Below are positions 4,273 through 40,852 of a DNA stretch of 64,000 nt, in pieces. The notes beneath the pieces are model-generated. The model searched no databases. It saw only the letters and a list, made by a program, of their open reading frames with translations, and was not told where the DNA came from. Location of the stretch: assembly GCA_964644035.1 (NCBI GenBank), contig CAZXUH010000001.1:131712-195711 (forward strand), written 5' to 3'. Position 1 is the stretch's first letter. The number at the start of each line of letters is the position of its first letter. The position numbers were made by a program, and so were the translations under genes. This stretch comes from an uncultured Candidatus Saccharibacteria bacterium. GTDB taxonomy: Bacteria > Patescibacteriota > Minisyncoccia > Phycocordibacterales > DAORIS01.

Positions 4273-4356
4273 GCGCAGGTGGTAGAGCGGTCAATTACAA
4301 CAGACTGTAAATCTGTCGGCCTATGGCCTACGAAGGTTCGAATCCTTCCCTGCGCA
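4273..4356 (+). tRNA. tRNA-Tyr (anticodon GTA), type II with long variable arm; CCA not encoded
   Basis: Hand-folded cloverleaf: acceptor GCGCAGG/CCTGCGC, anticodon stem ACAGA/TCTGT with loop CTGTAAA, variable arm CGGCCTATGGCCTAC, T-arm GAAGG-TTCGAAT-CCTTC. Confidence 0.8.
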
Positions 4357-11001: not shown

Positions 11002-11072
11002 CGGGCGATGAAGGAATCGAACCCTCGACGACGGTTTTGGAGACCGTAGTTATACCATTTAACTAATCGCCC
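11002..11072 (-). tRNA. tRNA-Trp (anticodon CCA)
   Basis: Reverse-complement cloverleaf: GGGCGAT acceptor, D-stem AGTT/AACT, anticodon stem ACGGT/ACCGT with loop CTCCAAA, T-loop TTCGATT. Confidence 0.8.
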
Positions 11073-12354: not shown

Positions 12355-12441
12355 TGGTGCCGAAGGAGGGGGTCGAACCCTCATGAAGTTACCCTCGCAC
12401 GATTTTGAGTCGTGTGCGTCTGCCAATTCCGCCACTTCGGC
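12355..12441 (-). tRNA. tRNA-Leu (anticodon CAA), type II, CCA encoded
   Basis: Reverse-complement GCCGAAG...CTTCGGCACCA; anticodon loop CTCAAAA; long variable arm; T-arm GAGGG-TTCGACC-CCCTC. Confidence 0.8.
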
Positions 12442-24019: not shown

Positions 24020-24090
24020 TGCCAGATCGTCTAACGGTAGGACACCGCCCTTTGGAGGCGGGTATCTTGGTTCGATTCCAAGCCTGGCAG
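24020..24090 (+). tRNA. tRNA-Gln (anticodon TTG); U1:A72 pair, discriminator G, CCA not encoded
   Basis: Hand-folded: acceptor TGCCAGA/CCTGGCA (one 7:66 mismatch), D-stem GTCT/GGAC, anticodon stem CCGCC/GGCGG with loop CTTTGGA, T-arm CTTGG-TTCGATT-CCAAG. The U1:A72 pair is a known Gln identity feature. Confidence 0.6.
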
Positions 24091-30081: not shown

Positions 30082-31752
30082 ATGAAAAAAAGAATTTTCC
30101 TCAGTGTTGGAATGATTGTATTTGTGACCGCTGTAGTTATCGGCGCAACAGGTGCATTCTTTTCTGACACAGAAACATCGGCTGATAACATCTTCACTGC
30201 GGGCGCAATTGACCTGCAGGTGGACAATACCAGCTATTACAACGGCGCTGTCTCGACAAGCACGACATGGACAATGCGTGATCTTACGATCGAGAAGTTT
30301 TTTAATTTCCTAGACTTGAAACCGGGAGACACTGGTGAAGACACCATCTCGCTTCATGTCAATAACAACGATTCATGGCTCTGCGCCGACGTTACATTGA
30401 CTTCGGACAATGACAACTCACTCACTGAACCAGAATCAGAAGACGGTGATGCAACAGGCGGTATTGGCGAAGGAGAACTCGGTGATCAGGTCAATTTTAT
30501 TTGGTGGGCGGACGACGGCGACAATGTCCTCGAAACTGATGAAACAGTATTGCCTGGAGGTCCTATTGGAGCACTCGGAGTCGGAAATACGGCAACAGTT
30601 GCTCTTGCAGACTCTCAGACAAATATTTGGGGTGATGAAGGTCCACTTCCTGGCGCATCTGTACGATATGTTGGCAAGGCATGGTGCTTTGGTGATATTT
30701 CAGCAGCAGCCCTTACACAGGATGGTTTTGGAACATCAAGTCCTCGCACACCAGCCAACTCAACAGGCGGTATTGCATGCGATGGATCTGATCTAGACAA
30801 CACCGCTCAGACAGACAGTCTCACAGCAGACGTCTCATTCCGAGCAGTTCAGTCACGAAACAATGGTAGCTTCGTATGTGAAGCTCCAGATGAAGAACCA
30901 GTAGAACCTACAGTAGGAGCACTTCTTAGCTCATACGTAGCTCCAACAGGTGAATCTTGCAACGTAGTTGTCTCATCTTCAACACCTTCACTCGATACGA
31001 TTCAGGAAGGTGTCGATGCAGCTCTCGCAGGTCAAACAGTGTGCGTACTTCCTGGAACATATACAGGAGACGTCAATGTTAATAAATCAATCACTCTTGC
31101 AGGTGGAGGATCAGCAAATACGACCGTTAATGGTGTCGGACTAGGCGAAGCAGGTGCTCTCGTTATTTCAGCCAACAACGTAACTGTCAAAGGCTTCAAT
31201 GTAAATGGTACTGGTGTCTCAGCTATCCGAATCTCGGGTGCTCGCTCTGGTATCACGATCAATAGCAACAAGATGACTTCGGCAACAGGCCAGAATGCAT
31301 TTCTTGCTGATGGCGGTCAGACAAACCATGTTCTCTCAAACAATGAATTTGTCGGATCAAATGCAGGTCCAATTGCATACGTAAATGGTCTTGCAAGCGT
31401 CAATGTGGCTTCAAACAATGTTGATTTCAACAACAACACTTTTAGCGGATCAGGAACAATGGCTCTTGGTCAGGAAGCTTTTGGTAGCGATGTAAAACTC
31501 AACAAGTTTTCAGCTTCAACAAGCTTCACGGATGTTGAAGACTGGACAGCAGGTAGCTTGTTCAATCAGAACAACTTCAACGACGCAGGTTTGAATCTCC
31601 AGCATTCAGAAAATGGTAATACTGGTGAAACAGGCATTACCAATGCAGAAAACAACTGGTGGGGCGATGCAAACCCAGCAGACGGCGATGTTAATGCGAA
31701 TGCAGATGTAGACTTCAACCCATTTGCAGCAAGCGCATTCCCACAGAACTAG
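30082..31752 (+). CDS. TasA/camelysin-like (peptidase M73 family) secreted protein with SipW-cognate signal peptide and C-terminal right-handed beta-helix domain
   Basis: 556 aa. The N-terminus MKKRIFLSVGMIVFVTAVVIGATGAFFSDTETSADNIFTAGAIDLQVDN matches B. subtilis TasA (GGGTWAAFNDIKSKDATFASGTLDL). The C-terminal half has NVTVKGFNVNG...ITINSNKMT...VLSNNEFVG...VASNNVDFNNNTF beta-helix/PbH1-like repeats. Confidence 0.7.
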   Translation: MKKRIFLSVGMIVFVTAVVIGATGAFFSDTETSADNIFTAGAIDLQVDNTSYYNGAVSTSTTWTMRDLTIEKFFNFLDLKPGDTGEDTISLHVNNNDSWLCADVTLTSDNDNSLTEPESEDGDATGGIGEGELGDQVNFIWWADDGDNVLETDETVLPGGPIGALGVGNTATVALADSQTNIWGDEGPLPGASVRYVGKAWCFGDISAAALTQDGFGTSSPRTPANSTGGIACDGSDLDNTAQTDSLTADVSFRAVQSRNNGSFVCEAPDEEPVEPTVGALLSSYVAPTGESCNVVVSSSTPSLDTIQEGVDAALAGQTVCVLPGTYTGDVNVNKSITLAGGGSANTTVNGVGLGEAGALVISANNVTVKGFNVNGTGVSAIRISGARSGITINSNKMTSATGQNAFLADGGQTNHVLSNNEFVGSNAGPIAYVNGLASVNVASNNVDFNNNTFSGSGTMALGQEAFGSDVKLNKFSASTSFTDVEDWTAGSLFNQNNFNDAGLNLQHSENGNTGETGITNAENNWWGDANPADGDVNANADVDFNPFAASAFPQN

Positions 31753-31779
31753 GTCTTCTTTATCAGTTAATCAACTAAC

Positions 31780-33135
31780 ATGAAGAAGATACTACTCAGT
31801 ATTGGCTCTATCATCTTCGCGGGCGCTATCCTCGTCGGGGCGACGGGTGCGTACCTTTCTGACAGCGAGACCTCGACTGGCAATACCTTTGCCACAGGCG
31901 TTATTGATTTGAAAATCGATAATGAAAGCTATGTCACCAATGATTTTGGCAAACTGGTCTTCAGTTCGTCGACTTCATGGGCACTTTCATCGCTTGCCGG
32001 AAAACTCTTTTTCAATTTCTCTGACATTAAGCCAGGGGATATTGGAGAAGACACCATCTCGCTTCACGTAAACAACAACAATGCGTGGGCGTGCATGGCG
32101 GTCAATCTGACCGGCACACCGGAAAACGGTCAAAACGATCCAGAAGCAATCGTTGATCCTACGTCAGGCGCCAATGACGGTGAACTTCAAAATGAACTCA
32201 ACTTTGCTTTCTGGGGTGATGACGGCGACAATGTCTATGAACAAGGAGAGACTATTTTCAAGCAAGGGCTTGTAAAAAATATCTTCAACGGACAAAACTG
32301 GGCGCTTGCCGATTCCGCTACCAATATTTGGGGCACACCGGGACCAATTCTCGGCAATACCGTCAAATATGTTGGCAAAGCATGGTGCTTCGGACCACTT
32401 GGTACTGCTGCCAAGACTCAAGACAACTTGGGTAAGACAGGCAACAACGGACCATTGGTACGCGGAACGGGCTTTACCTGCAGTGGTGACACGATTGGCA
32501 ACATCGTGCAAAGCGATGGTCTCAAAGCCAATGTCAGCTTCACTGCAGTTCAGTCTCGAAACAATGGCAGTTTTGTCTGCGGTCAGACAACAACACCTCC
32601 ACCCCAAGCAACTTCAAGCTCCACATTTCTCTCGGATAATTTCGAAAGTTATACACCAGGGGATGAATGGGATGAAGAATGGCCAGATGGATCGTCGAAT
32701 TATGATTGGGATGAAGTTGGCGGGGTAAAGTTTTTGGCTGGTGTAGGCAATCCCGGAAAGGCAGCCGATCTCAATGCCGACAACAACAATGCCAGCGTTC
32801 CCAATAATAAAGAGACTCTGACGGCCACATATCTCGACGTTACGGGATACAACACGATTGTATTCAAGTATGATCGTAAGACCGATGACACCAATTCGCC
32901 TCCACAGGCAGTTGGTCCTCAGACTTTGAAGGTAGAGTATAGCGTCAATGACGGTGCAAGCTGGACGACGCTCGAGACAGTCAATGGAGAATCCGCATGG
33001 ACGACCAAGACTTTCTCACTCTCACCTTCGGCAAACAACAAACCAAGAGTAAAGGTCAGATTTACATTGACTGGTCAAGACGCAAGTAATCACGCCTACA
33101 TCGACAATGTAACGGTGACAGGCATCACACCTTAG
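31780..33135 (+). CDS. TasA/camelysin-like secreted protein, paralog 2, with distinct C-terminal beta-sandwich-like domain
   Basis: 451 aa. Same SipW-cognate N-terminus (GATGAYLSDSETSTGNTFATGVIDLKIDN). Conserved core GEDTISLHVNNNNAWACMAVNLTG...FAFWGDDGDNVYE...YVGKAWCFG. The unrelated C-terminal region ends ...AYIDNVTVTGI. Confidence 0.7.
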   Translation: MKKILLSIGSIIFAGAILVGATGAYLSDSETSTGNTFATGVIDLKIDNESYVTNDFGKLVFSSSTSWALSSLAGKLFFNFSDIKPGDIGEDTISLHVNNNNAWACMAVNLTGTPENGQNDPEAIVDPTSGANDGELQNELNFAFWGDDGDNVYEQGETIFKQGLVKNIFNGQNWALADSATNIWGTPGPILGNTVKYVGKAWCFGPLGTAAKTQDNLGKTGNNGPLVRGTGFTCSGDTIGNIVQSDGLKANVSFTAVQSRNNGSFVCGQTTTPPPQATSSSTFLSDNFESYTPGDEWDEEWPDGSSNYDWDEVGGVKFLAGVGNPGKAADLNADNNNASVPNNKETLTATYLDVTGYNTIVFKYDRKTDDTNSPPQAVGPQTLKVEYSVNDGASWTTLETVNGESAWTTKTFSLSPSANNKPRVKVRFTLTGQDASNHAYIDNVTVTGITP

Positions 33136-33151
33136 TTATTCATTATTCACC

Positions 33152-34522
33152 ATGAAAAAAATACTGTTAAGCATGAGTGTAATAGTCTTCGTAGCCGGCG
33201 CCTTCGCAGCTGGTGCGACGGGTTCGTTCTTTTCTGACACCGAAACTTCAAGCGGCAATACGTTTACCGCTGGAGCAATCGATCTCAAAATCGACAACTC
33301 AAGCTATTACAACGGTTCACTATCGAGCAGCACCAGCTGGTCGCTGACGGACCTCACGATTCAGAAGTTCTTTGATTTCTCGGACGTTAAGCCAAGTGAC
33401 TACGGCGAAGATACGATTTCGCTGCATGTCGACAACAATGACGCATATTTGTGCGCCAATGTGACGCTTACGAGTAATGATGATAATGGTTTGACCGAGC
33501 CGGAATCGGAAGTCGATCAGACCGCAGGAGTAGGACAGGGCGAGCTTGCCGATGAAGTCAATTTCATCTGGTGGGCGGACGACGGCGACAATGTTCTTGA
33601 AGACAATGAAAATGTCATTTCTCAAGGACCGATCGGTGCACTTGGAGTCAATGGTTCGACAACTGTTCCTCTCGCTGATTCAGAAAACAATATCTGGACA
33701 GGTCAAGGTGGACCAGTGCCTGGAGCGCAGACGCTCTATATCGGCAAGGCGTGGTGCTTTGGCGGTATTACTGCAAACCCTCTCGATCAGGACAATGCGA
33801 CAAGCACCAATCCTAGTCTTGATAACAATGACAACTCAATTGCCGGTGAACCTGCAGACGGAGGATATCTTTGTGATGGATCAGATCTTGATAACAGCAC
33901 TCAAAGCGACAGTCTCACAGCCGACGTAACATTTACCGCTGTGCAGGCACGTCACAATGATGAATTCCTCTGCACACCTCCTCCACCTCCACCAGTGCGA
34001 CTGGCCTGCACTCCTGGACAGGAATGGGCAGATACGGTTGTCACGAGTAATCATGGCAATCGCAAAGATGGATCACTTATCTTAGTTGACCGACGCAATC
34101 CAACATTTGCTCTTGGTCCAGCACAGACAACAGGTACACCTTCGGATGCTGTTGTCACACCAGCGAGTTTCTTTAGCCTTGGATTCAATGTCGGTACAAC
34201 AACAACTCGAAGTCTGACGGTTGCATTCAATGACAACATTATCGTCAATGCAACTGGCAGCGACGTGCGTATCTATGAAGTGACAGGAGGAGTCTATCCC
34301 GATGAACACATCATGGTTGAAGCAAGTCAAAACGGCATTGGATGGACAACCATTGCCGCAGACGCAATTCGCGATGCTGATATTGATCTAGGGGCACTGC
34401 CTTGGGCTAGGTACATTAGAATCACCGACATCAATACAACGGGACCATTCCCAAGTGATGCCGATGGATATGATGTTGATGCTGTCAGGGCACTTAATTG
34501 TGAACAAACACCAGTGGTGTAA
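33152..34522 (+). CDS. TasA/camelysin-like secreted protein, paralog 3, with poly-Pro linker and third distinct C-terminal domain
   Basis: 456 aa. N-terminus GATGSFFSDTETSSGNTFTAGAIDLKIDN. Core nearly collinear with paralog 1 (GEDTISLHVDNNDAYLCANVTLTSNDDNGLTEPESE...NFIWWADDGDNVLE). PPPPPPV linker before a C-terminal domain. Confidence 0.7.
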   Translation: MKKILLSMSVIVFVAGAFAAGATGSFFSDTETSSGNTFTAGAIDLKIDNSSYYNGSLSSSTSWSLTDLTIQKFFDFSDVKPSDYGEDTISLHVDNNDAYLCANVTLTSNDDNGLTEPESEVDQTAGVGQGELADEVNFIWWADDGDNVLEDNENVISQGPIGALGVNGSTTVPLADSENNIWTGQGGPVPGAQTLYIGKAWCFGGITANPLDQDNATSTNPSLDNNDNSIAGEPADGGYLCDGSDLDNSTQSDSLTADVTFTAVQARHNDEFLCTPPPPPPVRLACTPGQEWADTVVTSNHGNRKDGSLILVDRRNPTFALGPAQTTGTPSDAVVTPASFFSLGFNVGTTTTRSLTVAFNDNIIVNATGSDVRIYEVTGGVYPDEHIMVEASQNGIGWTTIAADAIRDADIDLGALPWARYIRITDINTTGPFPSDADGYDVDAVRALNCEQTPVV

Positions 34523-34528
34523 TAACAC

Positions 34529-36097
34529 ATGAAAGTAATCTTCAACACTTTTTACTATCTCTTCATTGCAGGCATAGTAGCCATTGGACTTTTGCTCCTG
34601 GCGACGCTTGTTCCAGTGCCAGGGAATTTCAAGGTGAAAGTGGTGAAATCCGGTTCGATGTCGCCAGCTATACCAACAGGAAGTATCGTGGTCATTAAAC
34701 CCGAAAATTCTTATAGTGTTGGCGATATTATTACCTTCGGTGCAGATACTAAGACTCAGGTTCCTACGACGCACAGAATTATTGCTGTGCAGGGTAGTGG
34801 ATCGGGCAAAGTATTTACCACTCAAGGTGATGCCAACGATGCGCCAGATACGGCAGCAACGCGGCTATCGGATATCAGAGGCAAGGTAGTGTTTTCAGCG
34901 CCGTATGTCGGCTATGTGCTCGACTTCGGAAGGAAACCATTAGGTTTTGCACTGCTTGTAGGTGTTCCAGCACTCTCTATTATCTTCGATGAAATCATGA
35001 AGATCGTCAGAGAGATTAGAAGAATTCGCCGAAAGAAAAACCATCCAGAAGACAATATCGATGAATCTGCAAGTGGAGTGAGTACTACAGTACACAATAC
35101 TGTACAACCGCCAACAGTTACATCTACCTATTATCCGAAACATGACATAGCCAATAAAAGGATGATGTCAGCATCGATGGATGGAATAGTCAGACCTCAA
35201 CAGATAAGGAGGAATATAGAAAGTAATGCAGCCAGCCGGGCCTATCAGGTCCAGCCTGGGCGTGTAGCATATTTTTCCGCTCGAACACTTCTCGTGGCCT
35301 TCGTAGCTGCTGGGTGTATGTTTGGTCTGTCTTCTATAGGCGGTACGCTGTCATATTTCAATGACAGCGAAACATCGACAGCTAATCTTCTAAGAGCGGG
35401 AATACTTGATGTCGAAATTTCACCCATTCTTACGGACAATAGTGTTGCTCGTTTGAGTGTACCTGATGAGACAGCAAGCACGACCGAAGAAGTCAAAGAC
35501 AAACCGACAAGCAGCCAGCTCTTCAGAATTTCTCTTACTGATAGTGATAAGGAAAATGTACCTTTTCTTTACACGGTCTTTGGGGAATTCAATAAAGACA
35601 ATCCCGCTGGTTGCGAAGCAGTAGAGCTCAGCGTCTTCATGAATGAATATCATTATGATGGACTGCTGTCATCATTTGCTTTGCCGGCAACATCTGCGGC
35701 TGGTACAGGGCAGTTTATTGTCTCGGCACCAACCGGAGATTCTATTCTTGCATCGGGGGCAATATGTGCAGGTAATCTTATTTTCAGGGCTTATCCTGAA
35801 AATACAGAAGATCCGCTCAATTCGCCTTTCTCAGATGAGGAAAGGTATCCTTTCACGGTTCAAAATTATATTGAACCAGTGTCGATACCAGCAGCTCAAG
35901 AAATAGTTGCAGAATCTGTAGTTATTGAGGTTCCAAAAGAAACAGCAGAAGAAATAATAACTAATCCAGAAACAGAGAGTGAAACTCCTGTAACGGAAGT
36001 AATTGTTGAACCTGTTTCAGAGCCTGTGGTAGATATACCCCTTGTACCTGAGACATCAGCTACTGAAACACCACATACTTCTACCGAAACTATATAA
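34529..36097 (+). CDS. SipW-type (archaeal-type, S26B) signal peptidase I, fused in frame to a C-terminal protein that itself begins with a SipW-cognate signal peptide
   Basis: Residues ~1-175: N-terminal TM, VVKSGSMSPAIPTGSIVVIKP...THRIIAV...TQGDANDAPD...GKVVFSAPYVGYV, C-terminal TM (compare SipW VLSGSMEP). Residues ~215-522: basic n-region, h-region TLLVAFVAAGCMFGLSSIGG, then TLSYFNDSETSTANLLRAGILDVEISP (TasA-type cleavage region) and an acidic Pro/Glu/Thr-rich tail. There is no in-frame stop between the two parts. Confidence 0.65.
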   Translation: MKVIFNTFYYLFIAGIVAIGLLLLATLVPVPGNFKVKVVKSGSMSPAIPTGSIVVIKPENSYSVGDIITFGADTKTQVPTTHRIIAVQGSGSGKVFTTQGDANDAPDTAATRLSDIRGKVVFSAPYVGYVLDFGRKPLGFALLVGVPALSIIFDEIMKIVREIRRIRRKKNHPEDNIDESASGVSTTVHNTVQPPTVTSTYYPKHDIANKRMMSASMDGIVRPQQIRRNIESNAASRAYQVQPGRVAYFSARTLLVAFVAAGCMFGLSSIGGTLSYFNDSETSTANLLRAGILDVEISPILTDNSVARLSVPDETASTTEEVKDKPTSSQLFRISLTDSDKENVPFLYTVFGEFNKDNPAGCEAVELSVFMNEYHYDGLLSSFALPATSAAGTGQFIVSAPTGDSILASGAICAGNLIFRAYPENTEDPLNSPFSDEERYPFTVQNYIEPVSIPAAQEIVAESVVIEVPKETAEEIITNPETESETPVTEVIVEPVSEPVVDIPLVPETSATETPHTSTETI

Positions 36098-36120
36098 ATT
36101 TCGATTGAAGTGATAGTAGA

Positions 36121-36160
36121 ACAAACCACCCGAGGAGGGTGGTTTGTTTGTTGTTTTATT
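36121..36160. terminator. Bidirectional terminator between the convergent tasA/sipW operon and the cohesin operon
   Basis: aaaccaccc-gagga-gggtggttt 9-bp perfect stem followed by gtttgttgttttatt. Confidence 0.7.
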
Positions 36161-36198: not shown

Positions 36199-37644
36199 TT
36201 ACTCCATTTCCTCGATCTTTTTAATGAGATATTTTTCAGTAAGCTTAATGTTGTCTGAGAATTTCTTAAGTATCTTCGCTTCTTCTTTTGTGAGTTTTTT
36301 ATCACCCTTTGCGTTTTCAAGCGTCTCAACATGTTCATTGAGATCATCTTCGAGCAATTTCATTGCGCGATGAATTTCATTCTTAGTTTCGTGCAAGACT
36401 TTGTCAGTGCTTTGTTTAGGCTTTCTCGTCTTACGCATGATGAAGTAGGTGAGAGCCCAGACAAAGAGTAGTAGGCCAAGTATGGATACTATGAGAAGCA
36501 AGGTGCTATTTGCAAGGAGTGAGGTTGTGCCGCTAGTCTTTGCGGTATTTGGTTCAGGGAAGTTTATTGATAGCGATTCTTCTGCTGTATTGCCCGCAGC
36601 ATCGAATGCTTTGACAGTTACACCACGAATGCCTGCCGGTACATTGGCAAAGGTGTATCGTGTAGGGCCATTGGCGTTTGTACTCTTTATTTCAGCAGGT
36701 GCCTGACCATCTACAGTAATCAAATATTTTGCAATACCCGACGCACTATCTTTGGCAGAAATATCTATAACAGCCTGACCTGAATCCAGGATCGAATGGT
36801 TTACAGTAAGTGACTCTGGAGCAGTAGTATCGATTTTGACCTTTCTATGCGTAATTTTGCCCCAACCAGAACTATCTCTATATCGGATGTGGAAATATGA
36901 AAGCCCTTCTTCTATATCATTGACCTCTTTTGAATTTATAGCTGGTGTATAGGAAACAGTTGGTGTTGAGTCGGGATCTCTATCAAATAAAAGCTGAAGA
37001 GAAGTTACCCCTTTTGGAACTGACCAGAGAAAGGTTGTGTCGCTAAGAGAATACCATTTCTCAGGATCAGGCATGTCCTTTGAGGACACAATAGGAGCAG
37101 CTGGACCTACTTCTGTAGGTTTAGGAGTCTCTTTTACCTCTGGTGTCGTAGGTTTTGTGGCTGGAGGTGCGGTCACGACGACTGATACTCCGGTTTTACT
37201 TTGGGTAGCGTCGGTTCCTAGGCCGTCATTGGCACGGACGGTGGCTGATTGGAATGCAATTGTGGCTTTGCCATCTCTCTTGGCGCGCATTTGTATCGAC
37301 AAAACCTTGCCGGCTGAACCTGTATATCCAGGGTTAGGTACGCCACCATTAAACGTCACCATGCCGCCAGAAAATGCAGGCTGCTCTACCCACAAACTAA
37401 GCACCGATCCAGTGGTATTGACTGAAAGAATCTCCAGAATATCAGAGGGGACTGAAATCACCCCTTCGACGCTATTGATAGGAACGCCGTTGGTATTGAC
37501 GTAGATAGTTGCTGTGACTGTTTCGCCAGTTTGAACCTCAGCTCTTCCGGTCGTGATATACACGCTTGCAGCATCTATAACCTGAGCGGAAAGAAAGAAT
37601 CCTGCAATGATGACGGTTACGATAACATTCTTTAAAATCTTCAT
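36199..37644 (-). CDS. Cohesin-like domain protein with C-terminal TM anchor and cytoplasmic coiled-coil tail
   Basis: 481 aa. Signal peptide. GETVTATIYVNTNGVPINSVEGVISVPSDILEILSVNTTGSVLSLWVEQPAFSGGMVTFNGGVPNP...GKVLSIQMRAKRDG follows the cohesin pattern (GDTVxVPV...NxDFxxxYDPxVLE...G.I.F.F...DG.FA.I.FKV). Then Thr/Pro-rich linkers, Ig-like repeats, the TM helix LLLIVSILGLLLFVWALTYFI and a charged tail. Confidence 0.5.
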   Translation of the reverse strand: MKILKNVIVTVIIAGFFLSAQVIDAASVYITTGRAEVQTGETVTATIYVNTNGVPINSVEGVISVPSDILEILSVNTTGSVLSLWVEQPAFSGGMVTFNGGVPNPGYTGSAGKVLSIQMRAKRDGKATIAFQSATVRANDGLGTDATQSKTGVSVVVTAPPATKPTTPEVKETPKPTEVGPAAPIVSSKDMPDPEKWYSLSDTTFLWSVPKGVTSLQLLFDRDPDSTPTVSYTPAINSKEVNDIEEGLSYFHIRYRDSSGWGKITHRKVKIDTTAPESLTVNHSILDSGQAVIDISAKDSASGIAKYLITVDGQAPAEIKSTNANGPTRYTFANVPAGIRGVTVKAFDAAGNTAEESLSINFPEPNTAKTSGTTSLLANSTLLLIVSILGLLLFVWALTYFIMRKTRKPKQSTDKVLHETKNEIHRAMKLLEDDLNEHVETLENAKGDKKLTKEEAKILKKFSDNIKLTEKYLIKKIEEME

Positions 37645-38531
37645 TTCTTCTTTAATGAATATTTATAGATAACAATGCCGATAATGATAAGTACTGCTAT
37701 GTTGAGAATGAGCCACAACATTTGATTATTCGATGTTCCTGAAGCAGCTTTTGAAGTTTTTACAGTAACAGATTTGATATTTCCAGCATTGTCGACAGCA
37801 CGAACGGTTAGTTCTCCAGAGAGTGATTGATCTTGGAGAATATATGTATTGCCCGAGCGTACGAGAGGTAAGTCATTTTCTATGACTTCATAACGATTGA
37901 TACCCGATTCGAGATCGATAGCATTGAAGCTGGCGAAATATTTGCCATCGTAGGTGTCTTTGTCATAGCCGATCACTACGTCGAAATTTTGCGGTGCGAT
38001 CTTGTCGGCAAGTATAATTTCTGTAAGTTCATTGGATGTTGCTCCAGTCGTTTGTGTGACATCGATAGTAGAAGATTTGCCCGTCACCGACACTTTGGTG
38101 CCTTTGCCATCATGCAAAAATACAAATGCATTATCAAATGAAGCGTTTAGAGAACCAGGTGTGGTAGGTCTTATAGCAATAGAAAATACTTTTAGTCGAC
38201 TGCCAGAAATACCAGACGTAGCACCGCCGGTAAAGGTAATTTTCTTTCCTGAGAAAGAAGGTTTGTTTGGCCAAAGACTAAATAGGGAACTATTGGTTGT
38301 GATTGCTGTTATTTCATATTCACCCTCAATGGTCAGTGATCCTTCGACAACGTTTATTTCTTGTTTTTCAGTATCAAGTATGACATCGACGATAACTGTA
38401 TCTCCCGCATGCACGATTTGTGACGGTTCATTGAGATAGATAGACATTGCACGAGTTGTCGCAGGTAAGCACACAAAAGCTGTACAAATAGCTAGAGAAA
38501 ATAAAATCTGTTGTATAAAGGTGTGTTTCAT
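37641..38531 (-). CDS. Secreted cohesin-like domain protein (paralog of the N-terminal domain of the downstream gene) with C-terminal TM
   Basis: 296 aa. AGDTVIVDVILDTEKQEINVVEGSLTIEGEYEITAITTNSSLFSLWPNKPSFSGKKITFTGGATSG...LKVFSIAIRP shares the cohesin-like pattern. C-terminal hydrophobic helix. ATGA overlap with the next gene. Confidence 0.5.
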   Translation of the reverse strand: MKHTFIQQILFSLAICTAFVCLPATTRAMSIYLNEPSQIVHAGDTVIVDVILDTEKQEINVVEGSLTIEGEYEITAITTNSSLFSLWPNKPSFSGKKITFTGGATSGISGSRLKVFSIAIRPTTPGSLNASFDNAFVFLHDGKGTKVSVTGKSSTIDVTQTTGATSNELTEIILADKIAPQNFDVVIGYDKDTYDGKYFASFNAIDLESGINRYEVIENDLPLVRSGNTYILQDQSLSGELTVRAVDNAGNIKSVTVKTSKAASGTSNNQMLWLILNIAVLIIIGIVIYKYSLKKK

Positions 38532-38533
38532 TT

Positions 38534-40852
38534 TTATAATGCTTTACCTGCCGTACCCCATTGCGAGAGCAGTATTGAAAAGTCTATTGAATCGACACGT
38601 CGGTCTTTGTTGATATCAACGCATGTATTCTTAAATGGTGGAGCGGTCTTCCAGAAAGCGAGCAATATAGAGAAGTCAACTGAGTTTACATTGTTGTCGC
38701 CATTGAGGTCTGCTCCTTTGCAGGCTCCTTGCGGAGTTGGTACGGGAGTAGGTGCTGGTGCACCTCCACCGCCTCCACCACCGCCGGGTGAGGGTGTTGG
38801 AGTAGGATCAGGAGTGCTATCACTGGTAATGGTAAATGAACGTGATGAACCTGATGATTCGGTGCCGAAGTAGACGACAACCTTGAAGTAATACGAGCCA
38901 GCTGTCGAAACTGTAGCAGTAAGATTGGTATTCCAGTCTTCACCAGGGTTGATGAATTTTGCGCCGGTGCCATGGTAGACATCATTGCCACCACCGCAAG
39001 CATTGTCGGACTGACTGACGACGCACCATTCGTATTGGTATTCATAACCAGCCAAACCTTCATTGGTAATTGTTAGATTTGCACTGACGTTTGGTGTGCT
39101 CGTAGCGGTGACGCTATTGATAATCACTTGGGCAGGCGAGCCGGCGACAAGCCAATAGTCATTGGTTGTAATGATTTTGCCGCTTTCGACTTCTGTTTCT
39201 ACGACTGATTCCCATACACCCTGTGACGCTCCTGAAGAGACAGAGTATGTGTATTCATAGAGTCCAGCTCCAATATCGGTCATCGGTACAGAAGAGACTA
39301 CGACGTTTCTATCAGCATCGTAGAGTGTGATTTCTGGAGCGGCAAAAACATCTTGGGCAATACTCGAGCTATTGAGTGTTGATACTTTTGCTCGGTACGT
39401 ACTGCCATTTTGAACAGATGAATAGTCGGACATAGTTACGAGCCATGTTGCAGTTTGATTGGCCAAAGATGCGCGTGAAGAAGTAGTGGTATCGATATTA
39501 TCTGCGAGGCGCTTACCAATGGAGTTGACCGTATTGAGACTTGAAGTAAGGGTATTCCAGACATCGGCGGCAGTAATATCGTTGCCATATTGGGTTAGAG
39601 TTCGTGCGCTGTTACCCCACACAGCTGAAACAATACTTGATGTTGAATAGTCGGTCAGAGTTCTGCTGGTTACGCTCCATACATCTGCTGCAGTGAGCGT
39701 ACTCGTACTTCTACTTGATATCTGTGCATCGATATTGTCAGCTAGGCGTTTGCCAATACTGCCTGATGTGGTGAGTTGGGCTGCAGCACGATTCCATACT
39801 TCATACGCTGTTGTTGAAGCCAAAGAAGCTGCGTTTGTCGATGATCCATAATCAGTAAGTGATCGACTCGCATGAGTCCAAATATCTGTTGCAGAAATAT
39901 CGTTGAGACCATTTATAAGATTCCTATTGGCAAGTATTTCAGCAAAAATACCCGATGTGGCAATCTGAAGACTTGAAGTCAAATCAGTATTGGTGACCAA
40001 TGATCCGCCTGAACTAAGTGTAGAGTCGGTAAGTCGTCGTGTTGCGTTACTCCATATTGCTGAAGCAATGCTTGTTGTGGAATAGTTGGTGAGTGTTCTA
40101 GTTGTTGCATTCCAGACTTCATCAGCGGTCAAACTACTTGTTCCACGACTTGAAATTTGTGCGTCGATATTGTCTGCAAGAAGTTTTCCGAATGTTCCTG
40201 GTGAGGCAAAGCCGGCAACAGCTCTATTCCATACCTCATATGCTGTTGTCGAAGCAACTGTCGATGATCCATAATCGGTAAGTGTTCTACCTGTAAAGTT
40301 CCAAATATCACTTACTACAGATCCGAGAGATGAAAGTGTCCTTGTGCCACTATTCCAGACTGCTGAAGCAATGCTGCTTGTTGAAACAGCGGCTGAAGCA
40401 ACGGTAAATGTTCTATCTGTTTTAATAAGATCTCCTGCAAGGGCTGTGCCGCAGGTCATAGATGTAGGCCAATTGCCAAGTGCAGCATCAGAAGCAAGGG
40501 AATATGAATAATAATGCCAGCCAGTTGCTTCGGCAGTCATGGTTGCATTGTTTACTTTTTGAGTGCTTGTCGAATCGTATATTGTTACCCAGCAAGGAGT
40601 AGTGGTAGCTGAATAATTGTCATCGTATACAAATTCGCCAATAGTAACCGTATCTCCAGGGGAATATCTCTGATACTGGGCAAATGCCGTATGTGAAAAA
40701 CTAATACCAAATGTAAATAAAAACAGTAAAAAGAATAGTTTTGATTTTAGAGAATAATGTTTTTTACAAAAAATAGAGTAATGCATGGAAGTAGCAGTCC
40801 AATTGCTCATAATGATAGCCCATATAGCATTAGTTATCAACACGATATGCAT
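38534..40852 (-). CDS. Large secreted repeat protein with C-terminal type-I dockerin domain
   Basis: 772 aa. Likely start at the internal MHYSIF (signal peptide KKHYSLKSKLFFLLFLFTFGISFSHTAFA|QY). At least ten ~19-aa repeats of consensus xxA(S/D)(D/E)VWNxx(T/S)RTLT(D/N)Y(G/S)S, within a duplicated ~110-aa super-repeat. PTPTPSPGGGGGGGGAPAPTPVPTP linker. C-terminal GADLNGDNNVNSVDFSILLAFW...DINKDRRVDSIDFSILLSQWG is a duplicated F-hand dockerin. Confidence 0.55.
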   Translation of the reverse strand: MHIVLITNAIWAIIMSNWTATSMHYSIFCKKHYSLKSKLFFLLFLFTFGISFSHTAFAQYQRYSPGDTVTIGEFVYDDNYSATTTPCWVTIYDSTSTQKVNNATMTAEATGWHYYSYSLASDAALGNWPTSMTCGTALAGDLIKTDRTFTVASAAVSTSSIASAVWNSGTRTLSSLGSVVSDIWNFTGRTLTDYGSSTVASTTAYEVWNRAVAGFASPGTFGKLLADNIDAQISSRGTSSLTADEVWNATTRTLTNYSTTSIASAIWSNATRRLTDSTLSSGGSLVTNTDLTSSLQIATSGIFAEILANRNLINGLNDISATDIWTHASRSLTDYGSSTNAASLASTTAYEVWNRAAAQLTTSGSIGKRLADNIDAQISSRSTSTLTAADVWSVTSRTLTDYSTSSIVSAVWGNSARTLTQYGNDITAADVWNTLTSSLNTVNSIGKRLADNIDTTTSSRASLANQTATWLVTMSDYSSVQNGSTYRAKVSTLNSSSIAQDVFAAPEITLYDADRNVVVSSVPMTDIGAGLYEYTYSVSSGASQGVWESVVETEVESGKIITTNDYWLVAGSPAQVIINSVTATSTPNVSANLTITNEGLAGYEYQYEWCVVSQSDNACGGGNDVYHGTGAKFINPGEDWNTNLTATVSTAGSYYFKVVVYFGTESSGSSRSFTITSDSTPDPTPTPSPGGGGGGGGAPAPTPVPTPQGACKGADLNGDNNVNSVDFSILLAFWKTAPPFKNTCVDINKDRRVDSIDFSILLSQWGTAGKAL

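Follow-up and report, generated by a model that had tools for sequence, protein, structure and literature searches.

A SipW-like signal peptidase joined in one conserved reading frame to a proposed TapA-like accessory pre-protein in Patescibacteria

We analysed a 64,000-nucleotide stretch of the genome of an uncultured Candidatus Saccharibacteria bacterium (contig CAZXUH010000001.1, positions 131,712 to 195,711; hereafter the window) and found that one gene of a TasA-like fibre operon, at 34529..36097 on the plus strand, encodes a SipW-type signal peptidase, a cytoplasmic linker, an internal SipW-type signal peptide, a beta-sandwich accessory domain and an acidic tail within a single uninterrupted frame of 522 amino acids (aa). 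Sequence comparison confirmed a genuine gene fusion, conserved among homologues, in this Patescibacteria (CPR; Paceibacteria/Nomurabacteria-like) bacterium. By analogy with Bacillus subtilis, we read it as a 'Rosetta-stone' fusion, most probably of SipW and an accessory subunit of TapA-like kind, and we put at about 0.68 the probability that it is a natural, conserved fusion of the operon's SipW with a TapA-like accessory pre-protein that is cut, as we infer, after S275. The architecture, its conservation, the intact catalytic residues and the alternation between split and fused forms emerge from sequence, structural models and comparative data; the fusion is mechanistically suggestive, and its cleavage and function are predicted. 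Signal peptidases are normally stand-alone enzymes, and to find one joined with its cognate pre-protein in a natural and conserved fusion is, to our knowledge, rare. A full-text literature search found no published description of a SipW-substrate fusion or of the beta-sandwich partner family.

A reading of the window made from the sequence alone (the sequence-only reading) had reported this frame, without an internal stop codon and with exactly these boundaries, as a peptidase fused in frame to the bearer of its own SipW-cognate signal peptide. Both the frame and the fusion held up: two curated hidden Markov models (HMMs) scored above their cut-offs, and the same architecture was found in dozens of divergent homologues.

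The N-terminal half carries the enzyme. The archaeal/endoplasmic reticulum (ER)-type signal peptidase I model TIGR02228 (NCBIfam) reached 103.2 bits (cut-off 51.85) over residues 11-157, and the peptidase motifs SGSMSP (S43), THRI (H82) and GDAN...D (D101/D107) are all present. The catalytic pair is Ser-His, not Ser-Lys, and is accompanied by conserved Asp residues; the Ser-His pair is the defining mark of an ER-type signal peptidase (PMC10269814). S43, H82, D101 and D107 are retained in 48 of the 49 aligned homologues. The equivalog model for Bacillus SipW (NF046067) gave 103.8 bits, below its cut-off of 190, and the S26/S24 matches in Pfam were all sub-threshold. By sequence, the enzyme is a SipW-like member of the ER-type family (S26B), not a Bacillus SipW equivalog.

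The AlphaFold2 (AF2) model, Foldseek and hydropathy agreed on a SEC11-like fold with an N-terminal transmembrane (TM) anchor and a second, C-terminal TM segment. The best Foldseek matches of this half in the PDB were human SEC11C and SEC11A (E=9e-6 and 1.7e-4; 7p2q_A at E=9e-6). TM1, the membrane anchor, covers residues ~9-28 (34553..34612; AF2 helix 2-27), and the extracytoplasmic catalytic domain, residues ~29-137 (34613..34939), was modelled with a predicted local distance difference test (pLDDT) score of 83-96. TM2, residues ~138-156 (34940..34996; AF2 helix 137-171), is followed by the basic run RRIRRKK and would bring the chain back to the cytoplasm as in SipW. A complete peptidase with these motifs and two TM segments in the first ~175 residues, as the sequence-only reading had it, is therefore what the HMM score, hydropathy and AF2 model describe.

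Kyte-Doolittle hydropathy revealed three hydrophobic segments in the whole protein, at ~9-28, 138-156 and 253-272, and AF2 placed helices at 2-27, 137-171 and 251-269. Hydropathy, the positive-inside rule and the AF2 model are together compatible with a three-TM layout in which the N-terminus is inside, the catalytic domain outside, the linker inside and the C-terminal domain outside. Mean pLDDT was 69 for the full-length protein and 76.5 for the C-terminal domain modelled alone; the SEC11-like peptidase is confident, residues 176-248 of the linker are disordered (pLDDT <50), and residues 271-289 are of low confidence. The linker, residues ~157-252 (34997..35284), was delimited by charge count, pLDDT and homologue alignments and is basic, with 16 K/R against 8 D/E in a block (159-258) whose last few residues already belong to TM3. 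Its length differs among homologues, and in genomes where the two genes are split it corresponds to the tail of SipW together with the partner's N-terminal extension. It holds a short motif, SMDGIVRP, at residues 216-223 (35174..35197), which recurs in standalone partners and in other fusions.

The linker leads into a typical pre-protein signal peptide. The NCBIfam model for SipW-dependent-type signal peptides, TIGR04088, scored 27.3 bits (cut-off 19, E=2.8e-6) on residues 259-291 (segment RTLLVAFVAAGCMFGLSSIGGTLSYFNDSETS), upholding the internal signal peptide with a TasA-type cleavage region that had been read from the letters. By this match and by alignment, the h-region comprises T253-G272 (TM3) and the c-region T273-L-S275 (35285..35353). 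The placement is unusual for the family: in the fusion the signal peptide is internal, behind the peptidase and the linker, instead of N-terminal. In the split relatives the same signal peptide is N-terminal, but it follows an extension of 50-100 aa.

We aligned 49 sequences and examined the residues around the site. P3 is Thr in 49/49, P1 is Ser (42) or Ala (7), and P2 varies; P1' is Tyr or Phe in 48/49 and P2' in 45/49. E281, S283, N286 and A290 are conserved beyond the predicted cut. An invariant P3 and P1 around a variable P2 is, at the level of sequence, the -3/-1 pattern of a cleaved site. The small P3 and P1 residues, the aromatic P2' and a neighbouring SipW are those of a TIGR04088-type substrate, the peptidase here lying within the same polypeptide. 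In TasA the site from P3 to P4' is TWA-AFND, and it is processed by SipW, an ER-type (Ser-His) peptidase (PMC10269814). Because TLS-YFND of the fusion lines up with this site, we predict cleavage at TLS275|Y276FND, two residues upstream of the SYF|NDSE position proposed in the sequence-only reading. A cut there would yield the semi-tryptic peptide YFNDSETSTANLLR. The predicted mature N-terminus, YFNDSETSTANLLRAGILDVEISPI (residues 276-300; 35354..35428), resembles by BLASTP and hhalign the N-terminal strand of TasA-like proteins and is a candidate donor strand. In BLASTP the fusion site was 43-48% identical, across 25-28 residues, to the N-terminus of each of the three TasA-like proteins whose genes lie directly upstream; the third of them matched at 48% over 25 aa. 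The window contains exactly four SipW-type cleavage motifs and no more than this one SipW-type peptidase.

What follows the strand is a different domain. AF2 gave a confident eight-strand beta-sandwich at residues ~295-445 (35411..35863) with two invariant cysteines, C362 and C413, followed by a disordered Pro/Glu/Thr-rich tail, residues ~446-522 (35864..36094), in which pLDDT falls below 50 from residue 455. The tail is acidic, as had been noted from the sequence, with 13 D/E and 0 K/R in residues 471-522. The TasA/camelysin family PF12389 (Peptidase_M73) reached 17.1 bits against a threshold of 22.5, at residues 263-299 and over profile positions 13-49 of 196 only. An hhalign comparison of the C-domain family with the TasA-like family aligned just 27 columns (E=1.2e-4), and the fold differs from the TasA-type jelly roll. 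In the HMM search of the second half for TasA similarity, proposed in the sequence-only reading, the signal peptide scored above the TIGR04088 cut-off, and PF12389 stayed sub-threshold and local. The fused half is not a TasA domain; what it has in common with the TasA-like subunits is the signal peptide and the N-terminal strand.

The beta-sandwich family had no match in Pfam or NCBIfam, and homology of the C-domain to B. subtilis TapA was not detected by sequence or fold search. We therefore rejected TapA homology and use 'TapA-like' as a functional analogy only. The analogy has three parts: a SipW-type signal peptide and, behind it, a mature N-terminal strand similar to the major subunit's; a beta-sandwich of its own, not of TasA type, that ends in a disordered tail; and a gene that overlaps or is co-translated with sipW, fused here and overlapping in loci L009, L010 and L028. 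A C-domain profile search of 1.84 billion representative sequences returned 1343 clusters at E<=1e-3 and 94 at E<=1e-30, which defines a large beta-sandwich partner family.

A homologue search covering 5.8 billion proteins showed how far the join is conserved. The identical 522-aa protein occurs on seven or eight contigs from different sequencing runs, one of them a 568-kb NCBI contig, and more than 45 homologues of 290-720 aa, 30-48% identical, have the same in-frame architecture. Since the in-frame join is kept in these >45 divergent sequences, the fused product appears to be under selection. One fused homologue is annotated by NCBI plainly as 'signal peptidase I'.

We counted domain positions in the best 150 of the 1343 C-domain clusters. 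The C-domain starts at residue 180 or later in 33 of these, and TIGR02228 was found in 9 of 10 that were sampled; the remaining 117 comprise 85 standalone proteins with an N-terminal extension of 50-179 aa, 29 with an ordinary short signal peptide and 3 truncated sequences. The comparison of orthologous loci, which the sequence-only reading had named beforehand as a test, was made by hmmsearch on 80 species-representative Patescibacteria loci: 9 are fused, ~50 have sipW followed directly by a split partner gene, and ~20 have sipW without the C-domain. Where the genes are split they tend to touch. The partner ATG precedes the sipW stop in L009 (1064 and 1089) and in L010 (3339 and 3358), the two genes overlap by ATGA in L028, and a gap of 45 bp separates them in L006. 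Standalone partners also carry, near the N-terminus and after a basic segment, counterparts of the linker motif SMDGIVRP, namely SMDGILRP, MVDGITRR and FVDGICKP. Because the split loci overlap or adjoin and the linker motif is shared, we conclude that the fusion unites a pair of genes that are normally neighbours and whose translation is probably coupled.

The motif can be written hydrophobic-D-G/D-I/V-x-R/x-P and lies 35-60 residues before the h-region in fused and standalone partners alike; beyond the window we recorded its sequence in P0052, P0070, P0071, L004, L010, L012, L019, L028 and L031. A conserved n-region of 50-100 aa before a signal peptide is unusual.

In a rough neighbour-joining tree of the peptidase domain, built without support values, fused forms fall in at least three places, with a Fitch minimum of 6 changes, and the closest species representative, L009, is split. 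Three further loci, L011, L014 and L016, encode SipW fusions with an internal T-x-S/A|Y/F motif and without the beta-sandwich partner domain. In L081 a very short linker leads into a tail, …SPTASFSFDTETS, that looks like a SipW-type site, although our motif pattern did not match it, and L081 may be a further SipW fusion. SipW thus seems to have been fused to substrates with more than one kind of partner. In locus L086, labelled Pseudomonadales, sipW is present in three copies, and a partner gene comes after each of two of them. Several loci of Patescibacteria type bear other labels in third-party annotation (TPA) records of metagenome-assembled genomes (MAGs), namely Gammaproteobacteria (L053, L065, L067, L080) and Bacteroidales (L059), and many are labelled 'Saccharibacteria'; such labels may be binning or labelling errors.

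The closest known parallel is the tapA-sipW-tasA operon of B. subtilis. There the tapA stop codon overlaps the sipW start, TapA and SipW are both scarce, and the overlap has been taken to hint that they are associated in function and structure (PMC10151520). In donor-strand complementation TapA supplies TasA with its own N-terminal strand; it also has a complete Ig-type fold of its own and a disordered C-terminus (PMC10151520). The two systems resemble each other in their cleavage sites (TWA-AFND and TLS-YFND), in an accessory protein that combines the major subunit's N-terminal strand with a different beta-sandwich and a disordered tail, and in the physical overlap of the accessory gene with sipW. 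They differ in that the peptidase and accessory pre-protein form one polypeptide in the window, with the signal peptide internal as TM3, in the order sipW then partner, in the presence of three TasA-like paralogues with extra C-terminal domains, and in the Patescibacteria host. The split Patescibacteria pairs (L006, L009, L010, L028) share with the window the peptidase family, the beta-sandwich partner family, the cleavage motif and the MDGI-type motif; they remain two genes, overlapping by a few to ~26 nucleotides (nt) or 45 bp apart, whereas the window has one frame with a linker of ~80-100 aa.

Operons of the SipW-TasA type are familiar from Bacillus and Clostridium (PMC4551309; PMC11580942), where donor-strand assembly is coupled to cleavage by SipW at the membrane (PMC11580942; PMC10151520), and TasA homologues have been noted before in Patescibacteria (PMC9245690). 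The operons sipW-bsaA-bsaB-bsaC of Clostridium perfringens and sipW-calY1-calY2 of Bacillus cereus likewise combine SipW with several TasA-like matrix or fibre proteins, but their peptidase is a separate protein of ~190 aa for which no substrate fusion is reported. Archaeal bundling pili (ABP) of the AbpA/AbpB type also pair a TasA-like major subunit with a larger accessory protein, which has been proposed to give the first complementing strand to the major subunit (PMC9245690); their locus has neither a dedicated peptidase nor a fusion. In Streptococcus pyogenes SipA/LepA, which appeared among the fold matches (4n31), a signal peptidase homologue with the fold of that enzyme is dedicated to a fibre/pilus locus and needed for pilus polymerisation. 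SipA lacks catalytic residues and acts as a chaperone. The peptidase of the window, in contrast, retains Ser, His and Asp and is fused to its substrate.

From these comparisons we propose the following mechanism. The accessory protein consists of a long cytoplasmic N-extension, a SipW-type signal peptide, a TasA-like N-terminal strand, and an unrelated beta-sandwich with its acidic tail. After Sec insertion, the peptidase domain would cut past T273-L-S275, in cis or from a neighbouring molecule, so that the fusion presumably processes itself. The products would be a released 247-aa protein beginning at Y276 (YFNDSETS…) and a three-TM enzyme of 275 aa left behind. The released protein would play the part of TapA in B. 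subtilis, completing the first TasA-like subunit with its free N-terminal strand and so starting, capping or anchoring the fibre. The fusion would fix a 1:1 ratio of the two parts and co-localise the peptidase with a low-copy initiator.

In Rosetta-stone terms, the fusion argues that, in TasA-type fibres, SipW and the low-copy accessory subunit operate in physical partnership. For B. subtilis the only ground for this idea until now has been that tapA and sipW overlap (PMC10151520). The fusion also provides a built-in, single-polypeptide substrate for questions of ER-type signal peptidase specificity and of cutting in cis versus trans. A stronger version, possible but rather doubtful in our judgement, is a self-priming fibre module in which SipW, still tethered, would cut off its C-terminal half in cis just where TasA-like subunits emerge, the newly exposed strand of the released or transiently held beta-sandwich would nucleate a TasA-like surface filament, and the linker with its conserved MDGI..RP motif, kept by the peptidase, would serve as a cytoplasmic dock. 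Surface appendages are thought to be important for the host-attached lifestyle of Patescibacteria. If the self-priming version were true, the filament might be an attachment fibre of these episymbiotic, ultra-small bacteria, and the repeated fusion and fission would be direct genomic evidence for a long-suspected SipW-initiator complex.

The main rival to cleavage is that the chain stays whole: TM3 would be a signal-anchor, the beta-sandwich would remain attached to the peptidase as a membrane platform, and subunits would be cut and handed to the fibre base, or the fibre anchored there. We consider this unlikely, if still the likeliest of the alternatives. BsaA oligomers of C. perfringens have been proposed to stay membrane-anchored until SipW cuts (PMC11580942), and TapA shows membrane colocalisation (PMC10151520). 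The length and conservation of the cytoplasmic segment, and the MDGI..RP motif within it, would suit a lasting N-terminal role, and Patescibacteria would need a fibre anchor of some kind. An anchor, however, has no need of the P3 Thr and P1 Ser/Ala found around a variable P2 in 49/49 sequences, which is the signature of a cleaved site; this cleavage motif is shared by family members with ordinary short N-terminal signal peptides (P0087, P0069), and an intact catalytic site sits beside the cognate cleavage site. The same tethered signal peptide might instead fill the peptidase groove as a pseudo-substrate, leaving the enzyme inactive, or slow, as long as no TasA-like substrate takes its place. 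A tethered cognate site is present at high local concentration, and TasA-type cleavage regions can bind and inhibit the LepB signal peptidase (PMC10269814). Yet most relatives have a separate partner gene with the same motif, which makes a tether needless, and fused and standalone sites are not distinguishable, so that we find inhibition very improbable.

Two further explanations concern the frame itself. Translation might also start at M212, M213 or M217 to give a separate pre-protein, with the read-through fusion incidental. These in-frame Met codons, pointed out in the sequence-only reading together with an internal AGGA-ATG, do exist; M212 and M213 lie 5-6 residues before the MDGI motif, as do the starts of standalone partners (P0052, MHIKKKVQSMDGI), and AAAGG precedes the first internal ATG. 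As a ribosome-binding site the motif carries little weight, since AGG abuts the ATG with a spacing of 0-3 nt and real starts at this locus do without a Shine-Dalgarno-like sequence: none of the seven starts inspected (30082, 31780, 33152, 34529, 37644, 38531 and 40852) has such a purine run in the 30 nt upstream. The regions 5' of these starts are AT-rich, and their lack of Shine-Dalgarno sequences bears on the judging of gene starts and internal starts in this genome. A Met at the position is also not conserved in fused homologues (P0002, P0004 and P0006 are without it), and the in-frame join is kept across >45 divergent sequences; a second product therefore seems distinctly unlikely. Least credible of all is a sequencing or assembly frameshift that merged two adjacent genes, the lost stop or assembly error that the sequence-only reading had raised. 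A single indel could do this where the genes of split relatives overlap in different frames, and the closest species representative, L009, is split. But the linker of the fusion exceeds the L009 junction by ~40 aa and so is no one-base shift of it, fused forms recur in the peptidase tree at three places or more, and assembly error is ruled out by the identical 522-aa product on eight contigs of separate runs, the 568-kb NCBI contig included, and by fused orthologues in at least nine species representatives. The notion of two genes does hold in evolutionary terms: most relatives have the two halves as separate, adjacent and often overlapping genes. The cleaved fusion remains our preferred reading for the window.

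The fusion gene is the last of a four-gene plus-strand unit at 30082-36097, with intergenic gaps of 27, 16 and 6 nt. The other three genes encode TasA/camelysin-like secreted proteins, each with its own SipW-type site. Protein 1 (30082..31752; 556 aa; GATGA|FFSDTETS) matched TIGR04088 with 20.2 bits (cut-off 19), PF12389 with 20.8 bits and, in part, TIGR04247; protein 2 (31780..33135; 451 aa; GATGA|YLSDSETS) matched PF12389 with 23.5 bits (cut-off 22.5), PF21471, and TIGR04088 with 22.6 bits; and protein 3 (33152..34522; 456 aa; GATGS|FFSDTETS), assigned by Pfam, NCBIfam and motif search, ends 6 nt before the fusion gene. The order of three TasA-like genes followed by the fusion is repeated in L003, L004 and L005, around P0004, P0040 (Candidatus Zambryskibacteria) and P0024. 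The analysis draws attention to a fibre operon of TasA-like type that is highly conserved in Patescibacteria. The N-domain of protein 2 has homologues in more than 100 Patescibacteria proteins at 60-80% identity, and its family spans Nomura-, Kaiser- and Zambryskibacteria and Minisyncoccia, with PF12389 matched by 28 of 29 members. Because the TasA-like N-domain is 60-80% identical across distant Patescibacteria and the peptidase fusion 30-48% in comparable searches, the major subunit is, judged by sequence identity, much more strongly constrained than the accessory/peptidase gene. Searched as a profile against the PDB, the family of these TasA-like neighbours gave no match.

The three paralogues differ at the C-terminus, where protein 1 has a NosD/beta-helix-like region (307-394), protein 2 a Reelin-subrepeat-B-like domain (343-446) and protein 3 an unrecognised region of ~190 aa, which suggests fibre subunits carrying different binding modules. 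The Joint Genome Institute (JGI) names ~440-aa homologues of the protein encoded at 31780-33135 (for example P0220, P0225 and P0229) 'predicted ribosomally synthesized peptide with SipW-like signal peptide', a misleading label for large structural proteins.

The four-gene unit is closed by a terminator-like plus-strand hairpin with a 13-bp stem (GAACAAACCACCC…GGGTGGTTTGTTT) and a T-tract (36119..36159, the hairpin proper at 36119-36149), which sits between convergent gene units. The minus-strand cluster beyond it, at 36199-40852, encodes three surface proteins: two, of 481 and 296 aa, have an N-terminal signal peptide, weak Ig/OmpL47-type matches and a C-terminal TM anchor, and the third, of 772 aa, has MG2 and dockerin domains and a Gly8/Pro-rich run. 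The cluster may be a cohesin-dockerin-like display system, although no cohesin match was obtained in it, and a PDB search with the 481-aa protein found nothing. A scan of the whole window at Rfam gathering thresholds returned no RNA family other than tRNA, with four genes at 4273-4356, 11002-11072, 12358-12441 and 24020-24090.

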